A stretch of DNA of 64,000 bases from Octopus vulgaris. Its lineage: Eukaryota. A program made the translations under genes and the position numbers. Shown piece after piece: positions 2,223 to 54,823 of the stretch. Numbering within the stretch: position 1 is the first letter of the stretch; each line of letters starts with the position of its first letter. The DNA lies in assembly GCA_951406725.2 (NCBI GenBank), contig OX597830.1:78244001-78308000 (forward strand), read 5' to 3'. A model generated the notes under the pieces. It did not search any database. It worked only from the letters and a program-made list of their open reading frames with translations, and was not told where the DNA came from.

Positions 2223-3093
2223 CCCTTAGTGGCTGACGATATGTGCATCTCTGATCACGAGCAGAAGTAGTGGGGGGGGGGCATCATAGCCATGTGTTGA
2301 GAGGGATTCTTTGGGGTTTGAATAATTCACCTCTGGAAACATGGGTGGTTCTTTCAACATCCTTAAACAACCCTTATTCAGGGACCTTTTGAGCGGGATG
2401 GGCTACTCAACCCGAAGAAAATTCTAACTGGGCCCCACCTGCAAGGTCATGTGCTGTTTATCTTGATATGAGATCACCATGTCGCGCACATATGGTTGTG
2501 ATGCATGTGCCTGGTGTACCTTTATCAGACGGGTAGTCATGATGGGTATATTGGGCTTCGTATATTTTACCCCAGTGTCACTTTGATGGCATGCACTGCT
2601 CTCTCACTCAATAATAATAATAATATTAATAGTGTCTTGGTATAAAAGATGGGCTACAGCAATTATCCTGCTGAATACCACAGATTTCCTTGTCAGTTGT
2701 TTGACCGTAACCAGTTAAACATATCCTTTAGTGGCTGACGATATGTGCATCTCTAATCACCAGTAGAAATAGTGGGGGAGCCTCACAGCTATGTGCTGAG
2801 AGGAATTCTTTGGAGTTCGGATAATTCACTTCTGGAAACATGGGTGTTTCGTTCAACATCCTAAAACAAACCTTATTCAAGAACCTATTAAGCGGAATGG
2901 GCTTCTCGACCCGAAGAAAATTCTAACTGGGCCCCACCTGCAAGGTCATGCCCTGTTTACCTTGATATGAGATCACCATATCGCGTACATATGGTTGTGA
3001 TGCATGTGACGGGTAGTCATGGTAGGTATACTGGGCCTCGTATATTTTACCCCAGTGTCACTTTGATGGCATGCACTGCTCTCTCACCCACTC
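2222..3093 (+). mobile_element. Two tandem copies of a non-coding (AAT)n-tailed element, probably the 3' region of a Dong-like LINE
   Basis: Copies 2222-2610 and 2635-3093 share sequence and end CTGCTCTCTCA(CCCA)CTC(AAT)n; 5' ends differ. Confidence 0.7.
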
Positions 3094-3121
3094 AATAATA
3101 ATAATAATAATAATAATAATG

Positions 3122-3236
<115 letters not shown>

Positions 3237-3494
3237 TGATAAAATAGTATGTCCTTGTTTTGACACAATATCTTCAATCCCGGTAGACACAATATCTTCA
3301 ATCAACATCACGATATTGGATACTGTGTGACATCTTAAATAATTAGAATAATAAGCAATGGTTTCAAAGTTTGGCACAAGACCAGCAGTTTCAGGGGAGA
3401 GGCTAAGTCGATTACATCGACCCATAGTATCCAAATGGTTCTTATTTTATCGATCATAAAAGGATGAAAGGCAAAGTCGGCCCGCACATAAATA

Positions 3495-3830
3495 ATTGGC
3501 TGATGGCTGGGAGCAGAAACATCTACATGGCAAATATGTAGCCCGCAGCAAACAAGCAGACACATACAAGTGGCTACAGAGCTCAGAGCTGAAGGCAGAG
3601 GGTGAAAGCTTCATCTTAGTTGCTCAAGATCCAAGATTATTAACCTGGAACAATCAGTTCAATCTTATAAAAAATGTAGTAGATCCAAAGTGCCGATTCT
3701 GCAATGATGAGATTGAAACTGGAGAACCTAATTTCTGGATGCTAAATTTTAGCACTGGTGGAGTATCAGTCAGGTTATGAAAGAGTTTGTCCAATATCTA
3801 CACTGGTTAATATGTCTATATTGTAAATCA
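3495..3830 (+). mobile_element. R4/Dong-like LINE internal fragment
   Basis: WEQKHLHGKY...WLQSSELKAEGESFILVAQD...CRFCNDEIET matches the region translated at ~63670-63900. Confidence 0.75.
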
Positions 3831-4289
3831 AAACATATGTATGTGTGATAACTGATATGATATTAGACTATTCTCTTTACCCAATAAACGGCGATCGCAT
3901 AGGAAAAAAAACACTGGTTTAACTAGTGATTTAATTTCACTGATCCTATATTACCTGGGTTGGGTCGCAAAATGAGGACTATTTTGTTTAATCCTGTCGT
4001 CGCATTAAATGAGGCAGGATTTGTATTTTCGTTTATACATTTTTATTTTGTGTAAACTTAAGATTGAAATTTGAAGAATGTCTTTCGCGTCATAATCTAT
4101 TTCTTTATATTGCATTTCCTTTCTATGGCTTTGTACTTCTTAATTACTGCGTTGTTAATGAAGTAGTTCTATTTCAAACAAATTGTGATTGGTTCTGCTA
4201 TCTGTTTTTCATTAATTCATAACTAAGTGAAACAACATTGTTATGCTGTAATTGTTTTTCTTTTTATTATCATTGGTCGTCAGAATAAG

Positions 4290-5920
4290 GCGGCGAGCTG
4301 GCAGAAACGTTAGCACGCCGGATGAAATACGTAGCCGTTACGTTCTGAGTTCAAATTCCGCGGAGGTCGACTTTGCCATTCATCCTTTCGGAGTCGATAA
4401 ATTAAGTACCAGTTACGCACTGGGTTCGATATAAGCGACTTAATCCGTTTGTATGTCCTTGTTTGTCCCCCTCTGGGTATAGCCCCTTGTTGGTAGTAAA
4501 GAAATAGGTATTTCGTCTGCCGTTACGTTCTGAGTTCAAATTCCGCCGAGGTCGACTTTGCCTTTCATCCTTTCGGGGTCGATAAATTAAGTACCAGTTG
4601 CGTACTGGAGTCGATCTAATCCCTTTGTCTGTCCTTGTTTGTCCCCTCTATGTTTAGCCCCTTGTGGGCAATAAAGAAATAAGAATCGTTACCGCACCGA
4701 GTGAAATACTCAACGACATTTCGTCCGTCTTTACCTTCTGAGTTCAAATTCAACCGAGGTCAACTTTACTTTTCATAATTTCGGGGTCGACAAAATAAAT
4801 ACCAGTTGAGTTCTGTAATTGACTATCCCCTTCCCCCAAAATTACAGGCTTTGTGCTTACAGCAGAAGGGAGTATTTATCCTGAAAATATGTTCCGTTTC
4901 AAAACTTTAACATGAGACCAAGAATTTCAGAAAGCGTGGGTTAACCGAATGCATCGAACCGAGTACATGGTTGGTGGACGGGAGAAAGGCAAAGATGATT
5001 TTCGATGGATTTGAACTCAGAACTTAAAAATTCAGAAGAAAGCCGTCAATAAATTTTGTCTGACTCGCTAACAATTCTGCCAGCTAACCGCCTTATTTGA
5101 ACTTAAAATTATTCTCTCTAATTTTGGTACAGTGCCGTTCATTTTTATAGAAGGGAGCAAGCTGATAACATTGACCTCCAGTACTTGTCTGGTACTTTAT
5201 TTTATCGACCCCTGCAGGATGAAAAGCAAAGTTGACCTCGGCGGAGATGGAACTCAGAACGTTAAGTGTCATAATAAAAATTTTAAAAAAACGCTGCTAA
5301 ACGTAATTCAGTTTGACGGGTTAGCGGTTCCACCAGCTCAGAGTCTTAGGAGAATATAATATAATGGTTTCAAATTTTATCACAAGGGCAGCGATTTTAG
5401 CGTAGGGGATGCGTCGATTACATCGAACCCTGTGTATCACTGTCACATATTTGATCGACTTCGAAAGGATGGAAGGCAAAGTCGACCTCGGCGGAATTTG
5501 AACACAGAACGTAAAGACAGACGAAATACCTCTATGCATTTCGCCCGGCATGCCAACGCTTCTGCCAGCCTTAAGAGAATGTAATATAATGTTTTCTATT
5601 ATAGGCGCAAGGTCTGAAATTTGGTAGGGGATGGGGACACTCGATTACATCGACCGCAGTGCGTAACTGGTACCTATTTAATCGACCCCGAAAAATGAAG
5701 GTCAAAGTTGACCTCGGCGGAATTTGAACTCAGAACGTAACGGCAGACGAAATACGGCTAATCGACCCCAGTGCGTAACTGGTACGTATTTAATCGACCC
5801 CGAAAGGATGAAAGGCATAGTCGACCTCGGTGGAATTTGAACTCAGAACGTAACGGCAGACAAAATACGGCTACGCATTTCGCCCGGCGTGCTAACGTTT
5901 CTGCCAACTCGCCGCCTTAG
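4290..5920. mobile_element. Cluster of SINE family A copies (+ at 4290-4870, - at 4910-5920)
   Basis: Repeated GTTCTGAGTTCAAATTCCGCCGAGGTCGACTTTGCCTTTCATCC and its reverse complement. Confidence 0.8.
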
Positions 5921-6927: not shown

Positions 6928-7010
6928 TTTTCGACATATGTTTCGAAGGCTGCATATTCCTATTTTCGAAGGAATAAGGGGTGCATTATGCCGCCTTCTC
7001 ATCAGGAAAA
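6928..7010 (-). ncRNA. Type I hammerhead ribozyme, inverted copy of 7088-7170
   Basis: Reverse complement of the + strand motif in the left arm of the 6881-7217 inverted repeat; core intact. Confidence 0.8.
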
Positions 7011-7087
7011 ACATTATCGCTATAGGCTCCGTGTGGGCAGTCATCTAAAAGTTTTTGTGCATCTTGATGCTGACATAAGTTCCTTGT

Positions 7088-7170
7088 TTTTCCTGATGAG
7101 AAGGCGGCATAATGCACTCCTTATTCCTTCGAAATTAGGAATATGCAGCCTTCGAAACATATGTCGAAGA
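7088..7170 (+). ncRNA. Type I hammerhead ribozyme with long helix II
   Basis: TTTTC-CTGATGA-GAAGGC...GCCTTC-GAAA-CATATG-TC-GAAGA; palindromic helix III; GUC cleavage triplet. Confidence 0.8.
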
Positions 7171-22877: not shown

Positions 22878-23315
22878 CCGTGAGAACCAAAATCTTGGAG
22901 ACATGTGGTCAGAAAATGTTTCTAATTTTACCTTTCTATAAACCACATGACACAAGTGAGGCTGGAAAAAAGCTAAAAGAAAAACGGTTTATCAAAATAT
23001 TCAAACCTGTTTTAAACGGAAGTAACAACAATAATATAACAACCAGTTAATGATGTGGATTAAAAAATATAAACAAGTTACGGAATATATCGGTACGCCT
23101 GGAAAATTATGATGTTTAAGAACATGTGGAGTGATCAAAAAGGTATTCTAAAAATTCAGCTGGTTGGAGCATTCTAAGAGGTACTAAAGTTATCAAGAAC
23201 CCATCTGTCAGTTAAACACATTTGAAATCTGAGTACACTATGTATGAAAGCGCTAATTTTGTTAAAAATACCATTAACAAAAACGTGAAAACCAGACTGT
23301 TTTAACTTTATTCAA

Positions 23316-23387: not shown

Positions 23388-23438
23388 AAGGAGCTTCTAC
23401 AGGACTAGAACTGTTTCATTCAAAAGAAATCATCAGGA

Positions 23439-23489
23439 AGCTTCCTGATGATTTCTTTTGAATGAAACAGTTCTAGTCCTGTAGAAGCT
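23439..23489 (+). ncRNA. Type I hammerhead ribozyme inside a perfect palindrome (mirror copy on - strand at 23392-23442)
   Basis: AGCTTC-CTGATGA-TTTC(TTTT)GAAT-GAAA-CAG(TTCTAGTC)CTG-TA-GAAGCT; 6-bp helix I, GUA triplet. Confidence 0.8.
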
Positions 23490-46703: not shown

Positions 46704-46739
<36 letters not shown>

Positions 46740-49700
46740 CCTGACAATTTCTTGCTAAGTTTTCCTTATTAAGTAGTTGTCCTTAATTGTTAAATTTTTA
46801 TTCCGAAAAAACTTTTCCTCTCCCGAAATGCAATTCGTTAAAGTTTGTCATTTGACCGATTGTAATATATGTAAACTCACCCATGTGCTTCGTTGATGTT
46901 GAACAGTTAGCTGATCAACTTAAGCGAAGCAGGGTCGTTGTTTATTTATAATGCATTCTGGCCTGCTGATGAGTACGTAAGTATGAAATCACTGTGATAC
47001 AGGTCTATATTTTTAAATGTCTTACTTTGAAAAATTGCATTCGGTGGGATTAGTAATATTTTTGGTAGAAATGACTAATTGTCCCTCTTAGCGTTTGGCA
47101 TGTATATATATAATGCCTTCTGGCATGTATGTATAATGCCCTCTATATATAAATTAATATGTTCAATAAGAAATAATTATTTTCGAAATTTTTTCTCTTA
47201 TGAGGTTTTTACGCTATCTACCTGACAATTTCTTGCTAAGTTTTCCTTATTAAGTAGTTGTCCTTAATTGTTAAATTTTTATTCCGAAAAAACTTTTCCT
47301 CTCCCGAAATGCAATTCGTTAAAGTTTGTCATTTGACCGATTGTAATATATGTAAACTCACCCATGTGCTTCGTTGATGTTGAACAGTTAGCTGATCAAC
47401 TTAAGCGAAGCAGGGTCGTTGTTTATTTATAATGCATTCTGGCCTGCTGATGAGTACGTAAGTATGAAATCACTGTGATACAGGTCTATATTTTTAAATG
47501 TCTTACTTTGAAAAATTGCATTCGGTGGGATTAGTAATATTTTTGGTAGAAATGACTAATTGTCCCTCTTAGCGTTTGGCATGTATATATATAATGCCTT
47601 CTGGCATGTATGTATAATGCCCTCTATATATAAATTAATATGTTCAATAAGAAATAATTATTTTCGAAATTTTTTCTCTTATGAGGTTTTTACGCTATCT
47701 ACCTGACAATTTCTTGCTAAGTTTTCCTTATTAAGTAGTTGTCCTTAATTGTTAAATTTTTATTCCGAAAAAACTTTTCCTCTCCCGAAATGCAATTCGT
47801 TAAAGTTTGTCATTTGACCGATTGTAATATATGTAAACTCACCCATGTGCTTCGTTGATGTTGAACAGTTAGCTGATCAACTTAAGCGAAGCAGGGTCGT
47901 TGTTTATTTATAATGCATTCTGGCCTGCTGATGAGTACGTAAGTATGAAATCACTGTGATACAGGTCTATATTTTTAAATGTCTTACTTTGAAAAATTGC
48001 ATTCGGTGGGATTAGTAATATTTTTGGTAGAAATGACTAATTGTCCCTCTTAGCGTTTGGCATGTATATATATAATGCCTTCTGGCATGTATGTATAATG
48101 CCCTCTATATATAAATTAATATGTTCAATAAGAAATAATTATTTTCGAAATTTTTTCTCTTATGAGGTTTTTACGCTATCTACCTGACAATTTCTTGCTA
48201 AGTTTTCCTTATTAAGTAGTTGTCCTTAATTGTTAAATTTTTATTCCGAAAAAACTTTTCCTCTCCCGAAATGCAATTCGTTAAAGTTTGTCATTTGACC
48301 GATTGTAATATATGTAAACTCACCCATGTGCTTCGTTGATGTTGAACAGTTAGCTGATCAACTTAAGCGAAGCAGGGTCGTTGTTTATTTATAATGCATT
48401 CTGGCCTGCTGATGAGTACGTAAGTATGAAATCACTGTGATACAGGTCTATATCTTTAAATGTCTTACTTTGAAAAATTGCATTCGGTGGGATTAGTAAT
48501 ATTTTTGGTAGAAATGACTAATTGTCCCTCTTAGCGTTTGGCATGTATATATATAATGCCTTCTGGCATGTATGTATAATGCCCTCTATATATAAATTAA
48601 TATGTTCAATAAGAAATAATTATTTTCGAAATTTTTTCTCTTATGAGGTTTTTACGCTATCTACCTGACAATTTCTTGCTAAGTTTTCTTTATTAAGTAG
48701 TTGTCCTTAATTGTTAAATTTTTATTCCGAAAAAACTTTTCCTCTCCCGAAATGCAATTCGTTAAAGTTTGTCATTTGACCGATTGTAATATATGTAAAA
48801 CTCACCCATGTGCTTCGTTGATGTTGAACAGTTAGCTGATCAACTTAAGCGAAGCAGGGTCGTTGTTTATTTATAATGCATTCTGGCCTGCTGATGAGTA
48901 CGTAAGTATGAAATCACTGTGATACAGGTCTATATTTTTAAATGTCTTACTTTGAAAAATTGCATTCGGTGGGATTAGTAATATTTTTGGTAGAAATGAC
49001 TAATTGTCCCTCTTAGCGTTTGGCATGTATATATATAATGCCTTCTGGCATGTATGTATAATGCCCTCTATATATAAATTAATATGTTCAATAAGAAATA
49101 ATTATTTTCGAAATTTTTTCTCTTATGAGGTTTTTACGCTATCTACCTGACAATTTCTTGCTAAGTTTTCCTTATTAAGTAGTTGTCCTTAATTGTTAAA
49201 TTTTTATTCCGAAAAAACTTTTCCTCTCCCGAAATGCAATTCGTTAAAGTTTGTCATTTGACCGATTGTAATATATGTAAACTCACCCATGTGCTTCGTT
49301 GATGTTGAACAGTTAGCTGATCAACTTAAGCGAAGCAGGGTCGTTGTTTATTTATAATGCATTCTGGCCTGCTGATGAGTACGTAAGTATGAAATCACTG
49401 TGATACAGGTCTATATTTTTAAATGTCTTACTTTGAAAAATTGCATTCGGTGGGATTAGTAATATTTTTGGTAGAAATGACTAATTGTCCCTCTTAGCGT
49501 TTGGCATGTATATATATAATGCCTTCTGGCATGTATGTATAATGCCCTCTATATATAAATTAATATGTTCAATAAGAAATAATTATTTTCGAAATTTTTT
49601 CTCTTATGAGGTTTTTACGCTATCTACCTGACAATTTCTTGCTAAGTTTTCCTTATTAAGTAGTTGTCCTTAATTGTTAAATTTTTATTCCGAAAAAACT

Positions 49701-52700
49701 TTTCCTCTCCCGAAATGCAATTCGTTAAAGTTTGTCATTTGACCGATTGTAATATATGTAAACTCACCCATGTGCTTCGTTGATGTTGAACAGTTAGCTG
49801 ATCAACTTAAGCGAAGCAGGGTCGTTGTTTATTTATAATGCATTCTGGCCTGCTGATGAGTACGTAAGTATGAAATCACTGTGATACAGGTCTATATTTT
49901 TAAATGTCTTACTTTGAAAAATTGCATTCGGTGGGATTAGTAATATTTTTGGTAGAAATGACTAATTGTCCCTCTTAGCGTTTGGCATGTATATATATAA
50001 TGCCTTCTGGCATGTATGTATAATGCCCTCTATATATAAATTAATATGTTCAATAAGAAATAATTATTTTCGAAATTTTTTCTCTTATGAGGTTTTTACG
50101 CTATCTACCTGACAATTTCTTGCTAAGTTTTCCTTATTAAGTAGTTGTCCTTAATTGTTAAATTTTTATTCCGAAAAAACTTTTCCTCTCCCGAAATGCA
50201 ATTCGTTAAAGTTTGTCATTTGACCGATTGTAATATATGTAAACTCACCCATGTGCTTCGTTGATGTTGAACAGTTAGCTGATCAACTTAAGCGAAGCAG
50301 GGTCGTTGTTTATTTATAATGCATTCTGGCCTGCTGATGAGTACGTAAGTATGAAATCACTGTGATACAGGTCTATATTTTTAAATGTCTTACTTTGAAA
50401 AATTGCATTCGGTGGGATTAGTAATATTTTTGGTAGAAATGACTAATTGTCCCTCTTAGCGTTTGGCATGTATATATATAATGCCTTCTGGCATGTATGT
50501 ATAATGCCCTCTATATATAAATTAATATGTTCAATAAGAAATAATTATTTTCGAAATTTTTTCTCTTATGAGGTTTTTACGCTATCTACCTGACAATTTC
50601 TTGCTAAGTTTTCCTTATTAAGTAGTTGTCCTTAATTGTTAAATTTTTATTCCGAAAAAACTTTTCCTCTCCCGAAATGCAATTCGTTAAAGTTTGTCAT
50701 TTGACCGATTGTAATATATGTAAACTCACCCATGTGCTTCGTTGATGTTGAACAGTTAGCTGATCAACTTAAGCGAAGCAGGGTCGTTGTTTATTTATAA
50801 TGCATTCTGGCCTGCTGATGAGTACGTAAGTATGAAATCACTGTGATACAGGTCTATATTTTTAAATGTCTTACTTTGAAAAATTGCATTCGGTGGGATT
50901 AGTAATATTTTTGGTAGAAATGACTAATTGTCCCTCTTAGCGTTTGGCATGTATATATATAATGCCTTCTGGCATGTATGTATAATGCCCTCTATATATA
51001 AATTAATATGTTCAATAAGAAATAATTATTTTCGAAATTTTTTCTCTTATGAGGTTTTTACGCTATCTACCTGACAATTTCTTGCTAAGTTTTCCTTATT
51101 AAGTAGTTGTCCTTAATTGTTAAATTTTATTCCGAAAAACTTTTCCTCTCCCGAAATGCAATTCGTTAAAGTTTGTCATTTGACCGATTGTAATATATGT
51201 AAACTCACCCATGTGCTTCGTTGATGTTGAACAGTTAGCTGATCAACTTAAGCGAAGCAGGGTCGTTGTTTATTTATAATGCATTCTGGCCTGCTGATGA
51301 GTACGTAAGTATGAAATCACTGTGATACAGGTCTATATTTTTAAATGTCTTACTTTGAAAAATTGCATTCGGTGGGATTAGTAATATTTTTGGTAGAAAT
51401 GACTAATTGTCCCTCTTAGCGTTTGGCATGTATATATATAATGCCTTCTGGCATGTATGTATAATGCCCTCTATATATAAATTAATATGTTCAATAAGAA
51501 ATAATTATTTTCGAAATTTTTTTCTCTTATGAGGTTTTTACGCTATCTACCTGACAATTTCTTGCTAAGTTTTCCTTATTAAGTAGTTGTCCTTAATTGT
51601 TAAATTTTTATTCCGAAAAAAACTTTTCCTCTCCCGAAATGCAATTCGTTAAAGTTTGTCATTTGACCGATTGTAATATATGTAAACTCACCCATGTGCT
51701 TCGTTGATGTTGAACAGTTAGCTGATCAACTTAAGCGAAGCAGGGTCGTTGTTTATTTATAATGCATTCTGGCCTGCTGATGAGTACGTAAGTATGAAAT
51801 CACTGTGATACAGGTCTATATTTTTAAATGTCTTACTTTGAAAAATTGCATTCGGTGGGATTAGTAATATTTTTGGTAGAAATGACTAATTGTCCCTCTT
51901 AGCGTTTGGCATGTATATATATAATGCCTTCTGGCATGTATGTATAATGCCCTCTATATATAAATTAATATGTTCAATAAGAAATAATTATTTTCGAAAT
52001 TTTTTCTCTTATGAGGTTTTTACGCTATCTACCTGACAATTTCTTGCTAAGTTTTCCTTATTAAGTAGTTGTCCTTAATTGTTAAATTTTTATTCCGAAA
52101 AAACTTTTCCTCTCCCGAAATGCAATTCGTTAAAGTTTGTCATTTGACCGATTGTAATATATGTAAACTCACCCATGTGCTTCGTTGATGTTGAACAGTT
52201 AGCTGATCAACTTAAGCGAAGCAGGGTCGTTGTTTATTTATAATGCATTCTGGCCTGCTGATGAGTACGTAAGTATGAAATCACTGTGATACAGGTCTAT
52301 ATTTTTAAATGTCTTACTTTGAAAAATTGCATTCGGTGGGATTAGTAATATTTTTGGTAGAAATGACTAATTGTCCCTCTTAGCGTTTGGCATGTATATA
52401 TATAATGCCTTCTGGCATGTATGTATAATGCCCTCTATATATAAATTAATATGTTCAATAAGAAATAATTATTTTCGAAATTTTTTCTCTTATGAGGTTT
52501 TTACGCTATCTACCTGACAATTTCTTGCTAAGTTTTCCTTATTAAGTAGTTGTCCTTAATTGTTAAATTTTTATTCCGAAAAAACTTTTCCTCTCCCGAA
52601 ATGCAATTCGTTAAAGTTTGTCATTTGACCGATTGTAATATATGTAAACTCACCCATGTGCTTCGTTGATGTTGAACAGTTAGCTGATCAACTTAAGCGA

Positions 52701-54010
52701 AGCAGGGTCGCTGTTTATTTATAATGCATTCTGGCCTGCTGATGAGTACGTAAGTATGAAATCACTGTGATACAGGTCTATATTTTTAAATGTCTTACTT
52801 TGAAAAATTGCATTCGGTGGGATTAGTAATATTTTTGGTAGAAATGACTAATTGTCCCTCTTAGCGTTTGGCATGTATATATATAATGCCTTCTGGCATG
52901 TATGTATAATGCCCTCTATATATAAATTAATATGTTCAATAAGAAATAATTATTTTCGAAATTTTTTCTCTTATGAGGTTTTTACGCTATCTACCTGACA
53001 ATTTCTTGCTAAGTTTTCCTTATTAAGTAGTTGTCCTTAATTGTTAAATTTTTATTCCGAAAAAACTTTTCCTCTCCCGAAATGCAATTCGTTAAAGTTT
53101 GTCATTTGACCGATTGTAATATATGTAAACTCACCCATGTGCTTCGTTGATGTTGAACAGTTAGCTGATCAACTTAAGCGAAGCAGGGTCGTTGTTTATT
53201 TATAATGCATTCTGGCCTGCTGATGAGTACGTAAGTATGAAATCACTGTGATACAGGTCTATATTTTTAAATGTCTTACTTTGAAAAATTGCATTCGGTG
53301 GGATTAGTAATATTTTTGGTAGAAATGACTAATTGTCCCTCTTAGCGTTTGGCATGTATATATATAATGCCTTCTGGCATGTATGTATAATGCCCTCTAT
53401 ATATAAATTAATATGTTCAATAAGAAATAATTATTTTCGAAATTTTTTTCTCTTATGAGGTTTTTACGCTATCTACCTGACAATTTCTTGCTAAGTTTTC
53501 CTTATTAAGTAGTTGTCCTTAATTGTTAAATTTTTATTCCGAAAAAACTTTTCCTCTCCCGAAATGCAATTCGTTAAAGTTTGTCATTTGACCGATTGTA
53601 ATATATGTAAACTCACCCATGTGCTTCGTTGATGTTGAACAGTTAGCTGATCAACTTAAGCGAAGCAGGGTCGTTGTTTATTTATAATGCATTCTGGCCT
53701 GCTGATGAGTACGTAAGTATGAAATCACTGTGATACAGGTCTATATTTTTAAATGTCTTACTTTGAAAAATTGCATTCGGTGGGATTAGTAATATTTTTG
53801 GTAGAAATGACTAATTGTCCCTCTTAGCGTTTGGCATGTATATATATAATGCCTTCTGGCATGTATGTATAATGCCCTCTATATATAAATTAATATGTTC
53901 AATAAGAAATAATTATTTTCGAAATTTTTTCTCTTATGAGGTTTTTACGCTATCTACCTGACAATTTCTTGCTAAGTTTTCCTTATTAAGTAGTTGTCCT
54001 TAATTGTTAA
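46740..54010 (+). mobile_element. Tandem array of ~481-bp units (15 full plus a 54-bp partial), each with a type I hammerhead ribozyme; retrozyme-like or Penelope pLTR-like multimer
   Basis: CCTGACAATTTC recurs at 46740, 47221, 47702, 48183, 48664, 49146, 49627, 50108, 50589, 51070, 51550, 52032, 52513, 52994, 53476 and 53957. Units differ almost only in homopolymer length. No ORF >=60 aa lies within the units. (TA)n flanks both sides. Confidence 0.9.
46960..47005 (+). ncRNA. Type I hammerhead ribozyme (first of 15 copies in the array)
   Basis: GGCCTG-CTGATGA-GTAC(GTAA)GTAT-GAAA-TCAC(T)GTGA-TA-CAGGTC: helix I GGCCTG/CAGGTC, intact CUGAUGA and GAAA core, helix II with GNRA loop, palindromic helix III; predicted cleavage after A46999. 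Confidence 0.9.
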
Positions 54011-54823
54011 GTTATATATATATATATATATATATATAGGTATACATATGTACATATACATATTCTTATATATATGTATATACACACACACATATACATA
54101 TATACGTTTATATACATATTATGTGTGTATATGTGTATATATGATCGTATGTATCTCTTATTATAAATCTATATATAAATTGTTGTATGCATACATATAT
54201 AACGAAATTTATTACATATATCAAACGATCTTTATTTGTTGACAAGATATCCCTAAGTAAATAGTGTTCAACTTATAATATATTATATAACTATGAAATA
54301 GAACAGAATGCAATATATATGTGTGTATGTATGTTTATGTGTGTGTATGTGTGAGCGTATATATATATATTATATCATATTATATTATATTATATTATAT
54401 TATATTATATTATATTATATATGTATCTGTGTTTGTGTGAGAGTATGTGTATTTGTTTAGGAGATGGTATAGCTGTGTGATTAACAACTCGTTCGGTGAC
54501 CACACGATTTTGCGTTCAGCCCCACTGCGAGGCACTTTATGCAAATGTCTTCTGCTAAAGCCCCAGGGTGATCAATAACTTGGGAGTGGATTATTTATAA
54601 AAGATACCGCGTAAACTTGTCTTTCATATAAGCCTGTGTGTGGAGGGAGGTCTCTGTTTTTGTGTTACCCAACTCCTCAGCGCATGACAAAACCGGTGTA
54701 CGTTTGCCTACGTCCCTGCGGCAAGACAGTCCGATAGGATAGGTACCATACATGTGTGTATGTGTGCGCGTGCGTTTATGTGAATGCACGCATGAGTGTG
54801 TATGCATGTACGTATGTATGTAC

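Follow-up and report, generated by a model that had tools for sequence, protein, structure and literature searches.

A putative hammerhead retrozyme array in Octopus vulgaris and the two fixed 3' ends of its dispersed family

Structure of the array

The window, a stretch of 64,000 nt of Octopus vulgaris DNA (GCA_951406725.2, contig OX597830.1), contains a tandem array of 15 units of 481 bp followed by a further 54 bp (46740–54010), with (TA)n on both flanks (table 1). TRF reports a period of 481, 15.1 copies and 99% matches for the span 46734–54010. The array contains 16 unit starts, the first at 46740 and the last at 53957, and the terminal partial unit (53957–54010) matches over 54 nt. Nine of the 15 full units are identical. 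Three substitutions, at 48454 (T>C), 48689 (C>T) and 52711 (T>C), are each found in one unit, and the remaining differences between units are 1-base indels within runs of A or T. The longest open reading frame within the unit encodes 48 aa, indicating that the unit is non-coding. An initial annotation of the DNA had placed the start of the array about 260 nt upstream of the first predicted cleavage site and had described a 54-bp end repeat, (TA)n flanks and units that differ by few substitutions and homopolymer indels. This description was confirmed, down to the exact positions of the three substitutions.

Two further substitutions are private to the locus, and an exact genome-wide search with the private-substitution patterns returned 15 and 14 matches, all inside the array. 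Contigs of the DNA runs stop at the TA tracts, and the left flank of the array is covered in one of the four DNA runs. At the right border (54011–54038), a possible target-site duplication is masked by the microsatellite. The 3' junction (54006–54014) contains four bases that re-copy unit nt 50–53 ahead of the TA run, an arrangement that resembles a false start followed by re-priming.

Table 1. Features of the array and its borders (positions within the window).
Feature	Position	Strand	Remarks
Left (TA)n target tract	46705–46739		
5' truncation junction	46738–46742	+	2-nt TA microhomology with the target (left extension 2 nt)
One-armed insertion, putative retrozyme	46740–54010	+	15 × 481-bp units plus 54 bp, non-coding, GC about 32%
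Pair of locus-private substitutions at unit nt 51 and nt 100	46790–46839	+	In 15/15 units
Type I hammerhead motif, unit 1	46961–47004	+	In 15/15 units; predicted cut between 46999 and 47000
Predicted 481-nt cut-to-cut monomer, candidate RNA circle	47000–47480	+	Strongly self-paired
Fixed 3'-end site A	47135–47160	+	Unit nt 396–421, mostly 412–417; just 3' of hairpin 358–401; unused as an end at the array's own locus
Best-conserved motif within the 119-nt A-to-B tail	47193–47210	+	Invariant in 13/13 aligned copies, young and older subfamilies; 1317 exact genome matches
Array 3' end at fixed site B	53997–54010	+	Unit nt 54; just 3' of hairpin 4–42
Two extra bases (GT), then right (TA)n target tract	54011–54038		

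Hammerhead motif and predicted RNA fold

The hammerhead motif was recognized by reading the sequence and consists of a CTGATGA core (46966–46972), stem II, GAAA, stem III, a GAUA cut site and a 5-bp stem I. Cleavage is predicted after 46999 (unit nt 260), and its phase is identical across the 15 units. A search against Rfam returned no hammerhead match, neither at the gathering score nor at E ≤ 5, and for the isolated 50-mer the catalytic fold is predicted at −6.5 kcal/mol compared with −12.0 kcal/mol for the minimum-energy fold, which is another structure. A 27-nt pattern of the hammerhead core has 362 exact matches in the genome and its reversed control has none, and the motif is therefore not a chance occurrence.

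The monomer from cut to cut (47000–47480) has a predicted fold of −136.6 kcal/mol (z = −8.2), and none of 100 shuffles was equally stable. Covariation within the aligned region gave no confirmation of the fold (a two-sided change in 1 of 35 pairs). One contig of run X19 that covers 46740–47076 differs by A>G at three positions of the hairpin predicted for unit nt 4–42. It is a single contig at a depth of 9 from a run only guessed to be RNA, and the differences might reflect an allele or A-to-I editing of the structured RNA.

A dispersed family with two fixed 3' ends

A genome search with the unit identified at least 228 matches among the 39 of 966 candidates that were scored, and an 18-nt motif common to the unit and its older subfamilies has 1317 exact matches (0 for the reversed control). 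The unit is also present in DNA runs filed under several species labels. Among the runs listed as holding the unit none is on record as RNA; four runs were guessed to be RNA, and in these the contigs span the unit and join its end to its start, a picture that tandem DNA gives as well. The initial annotation had proposed rolling-circle reverse transcription and had named confinement of the unit to a single locus as evidence against it; what was found is a family dispersed over many loci. A total of 45 loci were used for the analysis of insertion ends, consisting of 38 from the first genome search, a 31-unit array on C1 and six further young loci from a positional list. The degenerate locus L062 lies outside these end counts and inside the variant table (46 loci). 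The 38 loci of the 45–46 had been chosen because they hold a near-full unit, so their arms are skewed toward greater length; for this reason the tail of the length distribution was taken from the positional list.

The 3' ends of the arms concentrate at two sites. Site A (unit nt 396–421, mode 415) accounts for 36 of the 78 arm 3' ends and site B (unit nt 41–62, mode 53) for another 40, and the distance from the mode of site A to that of site B is 119 nt (the tail). A TA run directly follows the 3' end in 75 of the 78 arms. In the older subfamilies the ends lie at corresponding places (judged by eye). Within the predicted circle, sites A and B would each lie just 3' of a hairpin at one common multibranch junction. 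The end of the array at site B may be read as the start of reverse transcription, and the best-conserved motif of the tail is, from its sequence, a candidate binding site for the reverse transcriptase.

None of the 78 3' ends falls within 20 nt of the predicted cut. The 5' ends are evenly distributed round the unit (76 arms, KS p = 0.28), and only one of 76–78 arms has its 5' end at unit nt 256–266, about the predicted cut. The other copies therefore do not begin at the cleavage site, the second outcome that had been named as counter-evidence. There is no accumulation of 5' ends at the predicted cut, and a seeming cluster at nt 267–272 is not significant (p = 0.21).

Head-to-head pairs of 5'-truncated arms were identified by script at 32 of the 45 loci and additionally at L039; the array's own locus is one-armed. 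Among the 32 two-armed loci, 30 combine one end at site A with one at site B and none carries A+A or B+B (p = 2e-9 compared with independent choice). The two unclassed loci are L063, where the junction reads as A-type, and the degenerate L066. L039, which the script left unclassed because an older copy adjoins it, is also A+B. The central joints of the two-armed loci show an overlap of 1–6 nt in 17 cases, a blunt joint in one and inserts in 14.

In the 12 one-armed loci the terminal remainders vary from 56 to 450 nt, and terminal redundancy was rejected as a rule of the family. Since the 3' end is fixed and the 5' end random, the 54-bp terminal repeat is a chance remainder, and its earlier use as evidence for a circle does not hold. 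The ends are indeed out of phase with the cleavage site, as had been stated, but the array is not permuted: it ends 3' at one of the two sites that are fixed across the family, and its 5' end is a random truncation. The phase rules out a cleaved linear monomer as proposed, but it does not establish a circle as the template, because internal priming on a linear multimer that was never cleaved leads to the identical phase. Phase thus points to Penelope-type internal priming and not to a circle as such.

Variation within and between loci

The genomic copies were collected and compared, and the expected contrast was obtained: units diverge by 0.20% inside an arm, by 0.55% between arms and by 1.5% from one locus to another (266 pieces from 46 loci, with 394 columns masked; figures are pair-weighted and the within-arm value is dominated by the two longest arrays). 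Within arrays, 90 variants are singletons and 8 are shared, with 42 of the singletons all from L040. About 20 of the 46 loci share one common majority haplotype, so homogeneity alone does not discriminate between a circle and a homogeneous source array. The predicted cut-site junctions between units are exact in 184 of 185 cases.

Of the 32 two-armed loci, 11 have more than one unit on both arms. At L032, a private variant is found in every unit of both arms, and all seven genome matches to it lie at that locus; at L061, the same holds for a second private variant with five genome matches. For the three loci tested (3/3), no source array with the private variant was found elsewhere in the assembly, although such arrays may simply be missing from a single assembly. 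Locus-private variants in both arms, together with the two private substitutions carried by all 15 units of the array, are better evidence for a circle than phase is. A single-unit template is also favored by the two-armed loci with more than one unit on both arms, the exact cut-site junctions, the excess of singletons within arrays and the stable predicted fold of the monomer.

Five loci (L037, L063, L065, L061 and the 31-unit array on C1) carry variants in several but not all units, a pattern that a single monomer circle cannot give. At L063 (G000:C5, 2.04 Mb) two haplotypes are mixed with a period of 3, and at L037 (G000:C2, 102.98 Mb) a variant is found in the terminal unit of both arms and is missing from the next units. 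Both patterns hint at dimer or trimer templates.

The distribution of arm lengths on C1–C3 (41 arms from the positional list, counted by hand) falls geometrically, with 25 arms of one unit, eight of two, five of three, two of four and one of 31. Under a geometric distribution, an arm of 15 units or more has a probability of about 1e-6, making the array a length outlier; apart from its length the locus is ordinary for the family. The longest arm, of 31 units, is paired with an inverted arm of 1.06 units (G000:C1:64,639,650–64,655,250, L177 and L178), and its variant blocks are repeated in non-adjacent units, which suggests DNA-level duplication after insertion. Given the outlying length of the longest arrays and the variants that recur among the units of some of them, DNA-level growth or multimeric templates also occur in the family.

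Origin of the array

The array probably arose when a non-autonomous hammerhead retrozyme recently inserted, as one event, into (TA)n, through a Penelope-like endonuclease and reverse transcriptase that primed at a fixed internal site of the RNA and likely copied round a circular monomer. The family facts on which this explanation draws are dispersal, (TA)n targets, two fixed 3' sites 119 nt apart, random 5' truncation, seamless read-through of the cut site and, at two-armed loci, the use of one site per arm. That the retrozyme moved by Penelope-type priming is concluded with high confidence; a circle as the usual template is favored with distinctly less assurance, and the chance that all 15 units of the array derive from one reverse transcription event is judged to be about even. 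With respect to the rolling-circle origin proposed in the initial annotation, an RNA-derived insertion is upheld and the private variants make multimers likelier to come from a circle, but the argument from phase and redundancy falls away.

Under the proposed mechanism, a tandem copy would be transcribed, cleaved at successive hammerheads and ligated into a 481-nt circle. A Penelope-like protein would nick the (TA)n target, which is self-complementary, on both strands; site A would be primed from one nick and site B from the second, and each reverse transcriptase would travel round the circle for a variable distance. The two cDNAs would then be joined head to head; at the array locus, site B alone would have been used and the single cDNA joined across the TA tract by microhomology. 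A more specific version is put forward only tentatively: a dimer of the Penelope-like reverse transcriptase/endonuclease might grip one circle at the conserved 119-nt platform, prime both nicked (TA)n strands and roll from both fixed flanking sites. Each two-armed insertion would then be a fossil of bidirectional rolling-circle target-primed reverse transcription, and the 15-mer a single 7.3-kb run.

The low divergence within arms compared with that between loci is in line with a recent insertion, but a single event for all units has a close rival in later growth of the 15-mer. A short Penelope-type insertion (one unit plus a remainder, or a few units) might have expanded to 15 units at the DNA level by unequal exchange or slippage, which is possible though rather doubtful. 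The outlying length of the array and the variant blocks repeated in non-adjacent units of the 31-unit array, and likewise at L063 and L065, are in line with such growth; the 54-bp terminal direct repeat could seed unequal exchange, and private variants fixed across units are equally expected. However, no substitution is common to units of the array (p = 0.03 for its three singletons under gradual turnover, based on three sites only), the copying of at least 5.2 kb per arm by autonomous elements brings 7.3 kb within reach, and private variants on both inverted arms at L032 and L061 are left unexplained. An unlikely alternative concerns the template: a source array might give a linear transcript of several units that is left uncleaved and is primed internally (a dimer or trimer circle could serve likewise), with monomer circles as by-products. 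This would fully account for the phase pattern as well as for the terminal-unit variant on both arms of L037 and the period-3 haplotype mix of L063. It also agrees with two studies: a Penelope-like reverse transcriptase worked mainly on unprocessed RNA in vitro, with insertion unaffected by ribozyme mutants (PMC11167929), and eight of nine Xenopus retrozyme dimers were without cleavage in vitro (bioRxiv 10.64898/2026.07.22.740005). Against it stand the source arrays that were missing from the assembly for all three loci and the intact hammerhead core in 362 copies. In addition, linear copying combined with 5' truncation can only shorten arrays, so a separate long master would be needed for each private haplotype.

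Template jumping is known from R2-type reverse transcriptases. An enzyme that behaves in this way on linear monomers released by cleavage would, on reaching a 5' end, continue at the 3' end of that molecule or of a different one; without any ligation, this would yield multimers and in some arrays mixed haplotypes. The exact junctions at the cut site and the 5' truncations that do not pile up at nt 261 make this highly improbable. An ordinary minisatellite or an assembly artefact without any RNA step has very little to commend it: the homopolymer indels do resemble long-read consensus error and the copy number is known from the assembly alone, but the family is dispersed with fixed ends, TA targets and head-to-head arms, and the unit is found in DNA runs of other samples. 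The preferred reading therefore remains a Penelope-primed retrozyme insertion, probably copied from a circle.

Comparison with known systems

The kind of element and the rolling-circle idea have already been published. Circles have been described in coral, mussel and axolotl, rolling-circle reverse transcription has been proposed, and Penelope-like elements are named as likely helpers (PMC7229834, PMC7761336, bioRxiv 10.64898/2026.07.22.740005). On sequence grounds the array would be a metazoan non-LTR retrozyme, with the hammerhead motif, the short low-GC non-coding unit, the dispersal and the self-paired monomer all fitting, and with cleavage and circle as predictions. The retrozymes of Cervera and de la Pena 2020 (PMC7229834) and of the Xenopus study (bioRxiv 10.64898/2026.07.22.740005) likewise consist of tandem units that are short, low in GC and non-coding and that each hold one type I hammerhead; they occur dispersed as monomers to multimers and have a predicted self-paired monomer. 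The unit of 481 bp is above the range of 150–450 bp given in the former and inside the range of 51–972 bp given in the latter. Insertion ends are unmapped in the text seen of these papers, whereas two fixed sites with strict one-of-each pairing are found here. According to Li, Clavereau and Pollet 2026, Xenopus retrozymes are linked to Penelope-like terminal repeats, with 21 Penelope-like elements matched, and unequal crossover is raised for array growth (bioRxiv 10.64898/2026.07.22.740005); in contrast, homology to terminal repeats was absent among the families examined here. In the literature searched, no description of the family or of the mapping of retrozyme insertion ends was found; the supplements of PMC7229834 and bioRxiv 10.64898/2026.07.22.740005 were outside its scope and may bear on the point.

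The Penelope/Poseidon, Neptune and Naiad elements share with the family head-to-head 5'-truncated arms, a tail at one end, two internal starts of reverse transcription beside a stem-loop, microsatellite or (TA)n targets and a hammerhead upstream of the 3' end (PMC8557442, PMC3846280, PMC11167929). In the former two sources, insertions carry inverted 5'-truncated arms and the tail is optional and confined to one end. Frangieh et al. report that a Penelope-like protein, predicted to be a dimer, cleaves AT-rich DNA and extends it on both strands, and that reverse transcription starts at two internal sites as far apart as the tail is long (PMC11167929). Read together, these accounts indicate that the one-end tail equals the stretch between two internal starts of reverse transcription (PMC8557442, PMC3846280, PMC11167929). 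From endonuclease-bearing Penelope-like elements, the family differs in having no open reading frame, a tail of 119 nt instead of 30–40 nt and arms that are multimers of a short unit.

Twin priming of LINE-1, in which two primers on opposite target strands give rise to an inverted insertion, is similar in its use of two opposite-strand primers. In the present family, however, both starts are fixed, there is no poly(A) end, the arms overlap several times over and, as the 5' phases indicate, arm B does not stop at site A.

The family bears on how animal retrozymes move and on why Penelope-like insertions carry a tail at one end. It offers a small, young and non-coding substrate with two mapped start points, a one-of-each rule, a conserved motif and intact Penelope-like open reading frames in the genome. 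With these properties a circular and a linear template can be compared directly in the published in vitro system. The useful content of the data lies in the fixed two-site, one-of-each rule for the ends and in the private variants that extend across both arms.

Penelope-like elements in the genome

The genome is rich in intact open reading frames that combine reverse transcriptase and GIY-YIG domains, and these autonomous elements insert in (TA)n. In all seven two-armed loci of autonomous Penelope-like elements that were checked, a tail of 36–40 nt is present on exactly one arm. A similar one-arm pattern was seen by eye at L107, where a second autonomous family (2300–5480) has a tail only on the left arm, terminal repeats in inverted orientation and, about 150 nt ahead of its 3' end, a short hammerhead. 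The autonomous element at L102 (744–5960) has at least 5.2 kb copied in one arm.

The search for partners of the unit started from Pfam GIY-YIG matches in the genome, with 150 scored out of 6136 candidates. The 48 loci around these matches and 40 loci from two more DNA searches were compared with the unit and also with two older relatives. No terminal repeat homologous to the unit was found among the Penelope-like families covered (alignment score 89.5 compared with a shuffle mean of 102), and in the loci screened no RT+GIY-YIG open reading frame could be shown to be part of a unit-bearing insertion. At L137 (1009–1960), a fragment of a Penelope-like open reading frame adjoins an older relative of the unit in head-to-head orientation; co-insertion or chance nesting are possible explanations, and no recurrence of this contact was seen in the fetched loci of that open reading frame family.

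The element at L102 (G000:C6, 133.34 Mb) contains an upstream open reading frame of 479 aa (1268–2707) without a Pfam match that overlaps the 781-aa RT/GIY-YIG open reading frame (2626–4971) in the −1 frame, and L112, L229 and L235 have the same two-frame layout. Canonical Penelope-like elements, in contrast, are described as having a single open reading frame. A T TTT TTA heptamer in the upstream frame at 2638–2644 is a candidate site of ribosomal frameshifting, or alternatively a splice acceptor. Within the window itself, inverted CTGATGA...GAAA motif pairs are located at 7005–7093 and 23436–23445 and a short match to the endonuclease end of a Penelope-like element at 22895–23017; these are probably truncated two-armed insertions of other families.
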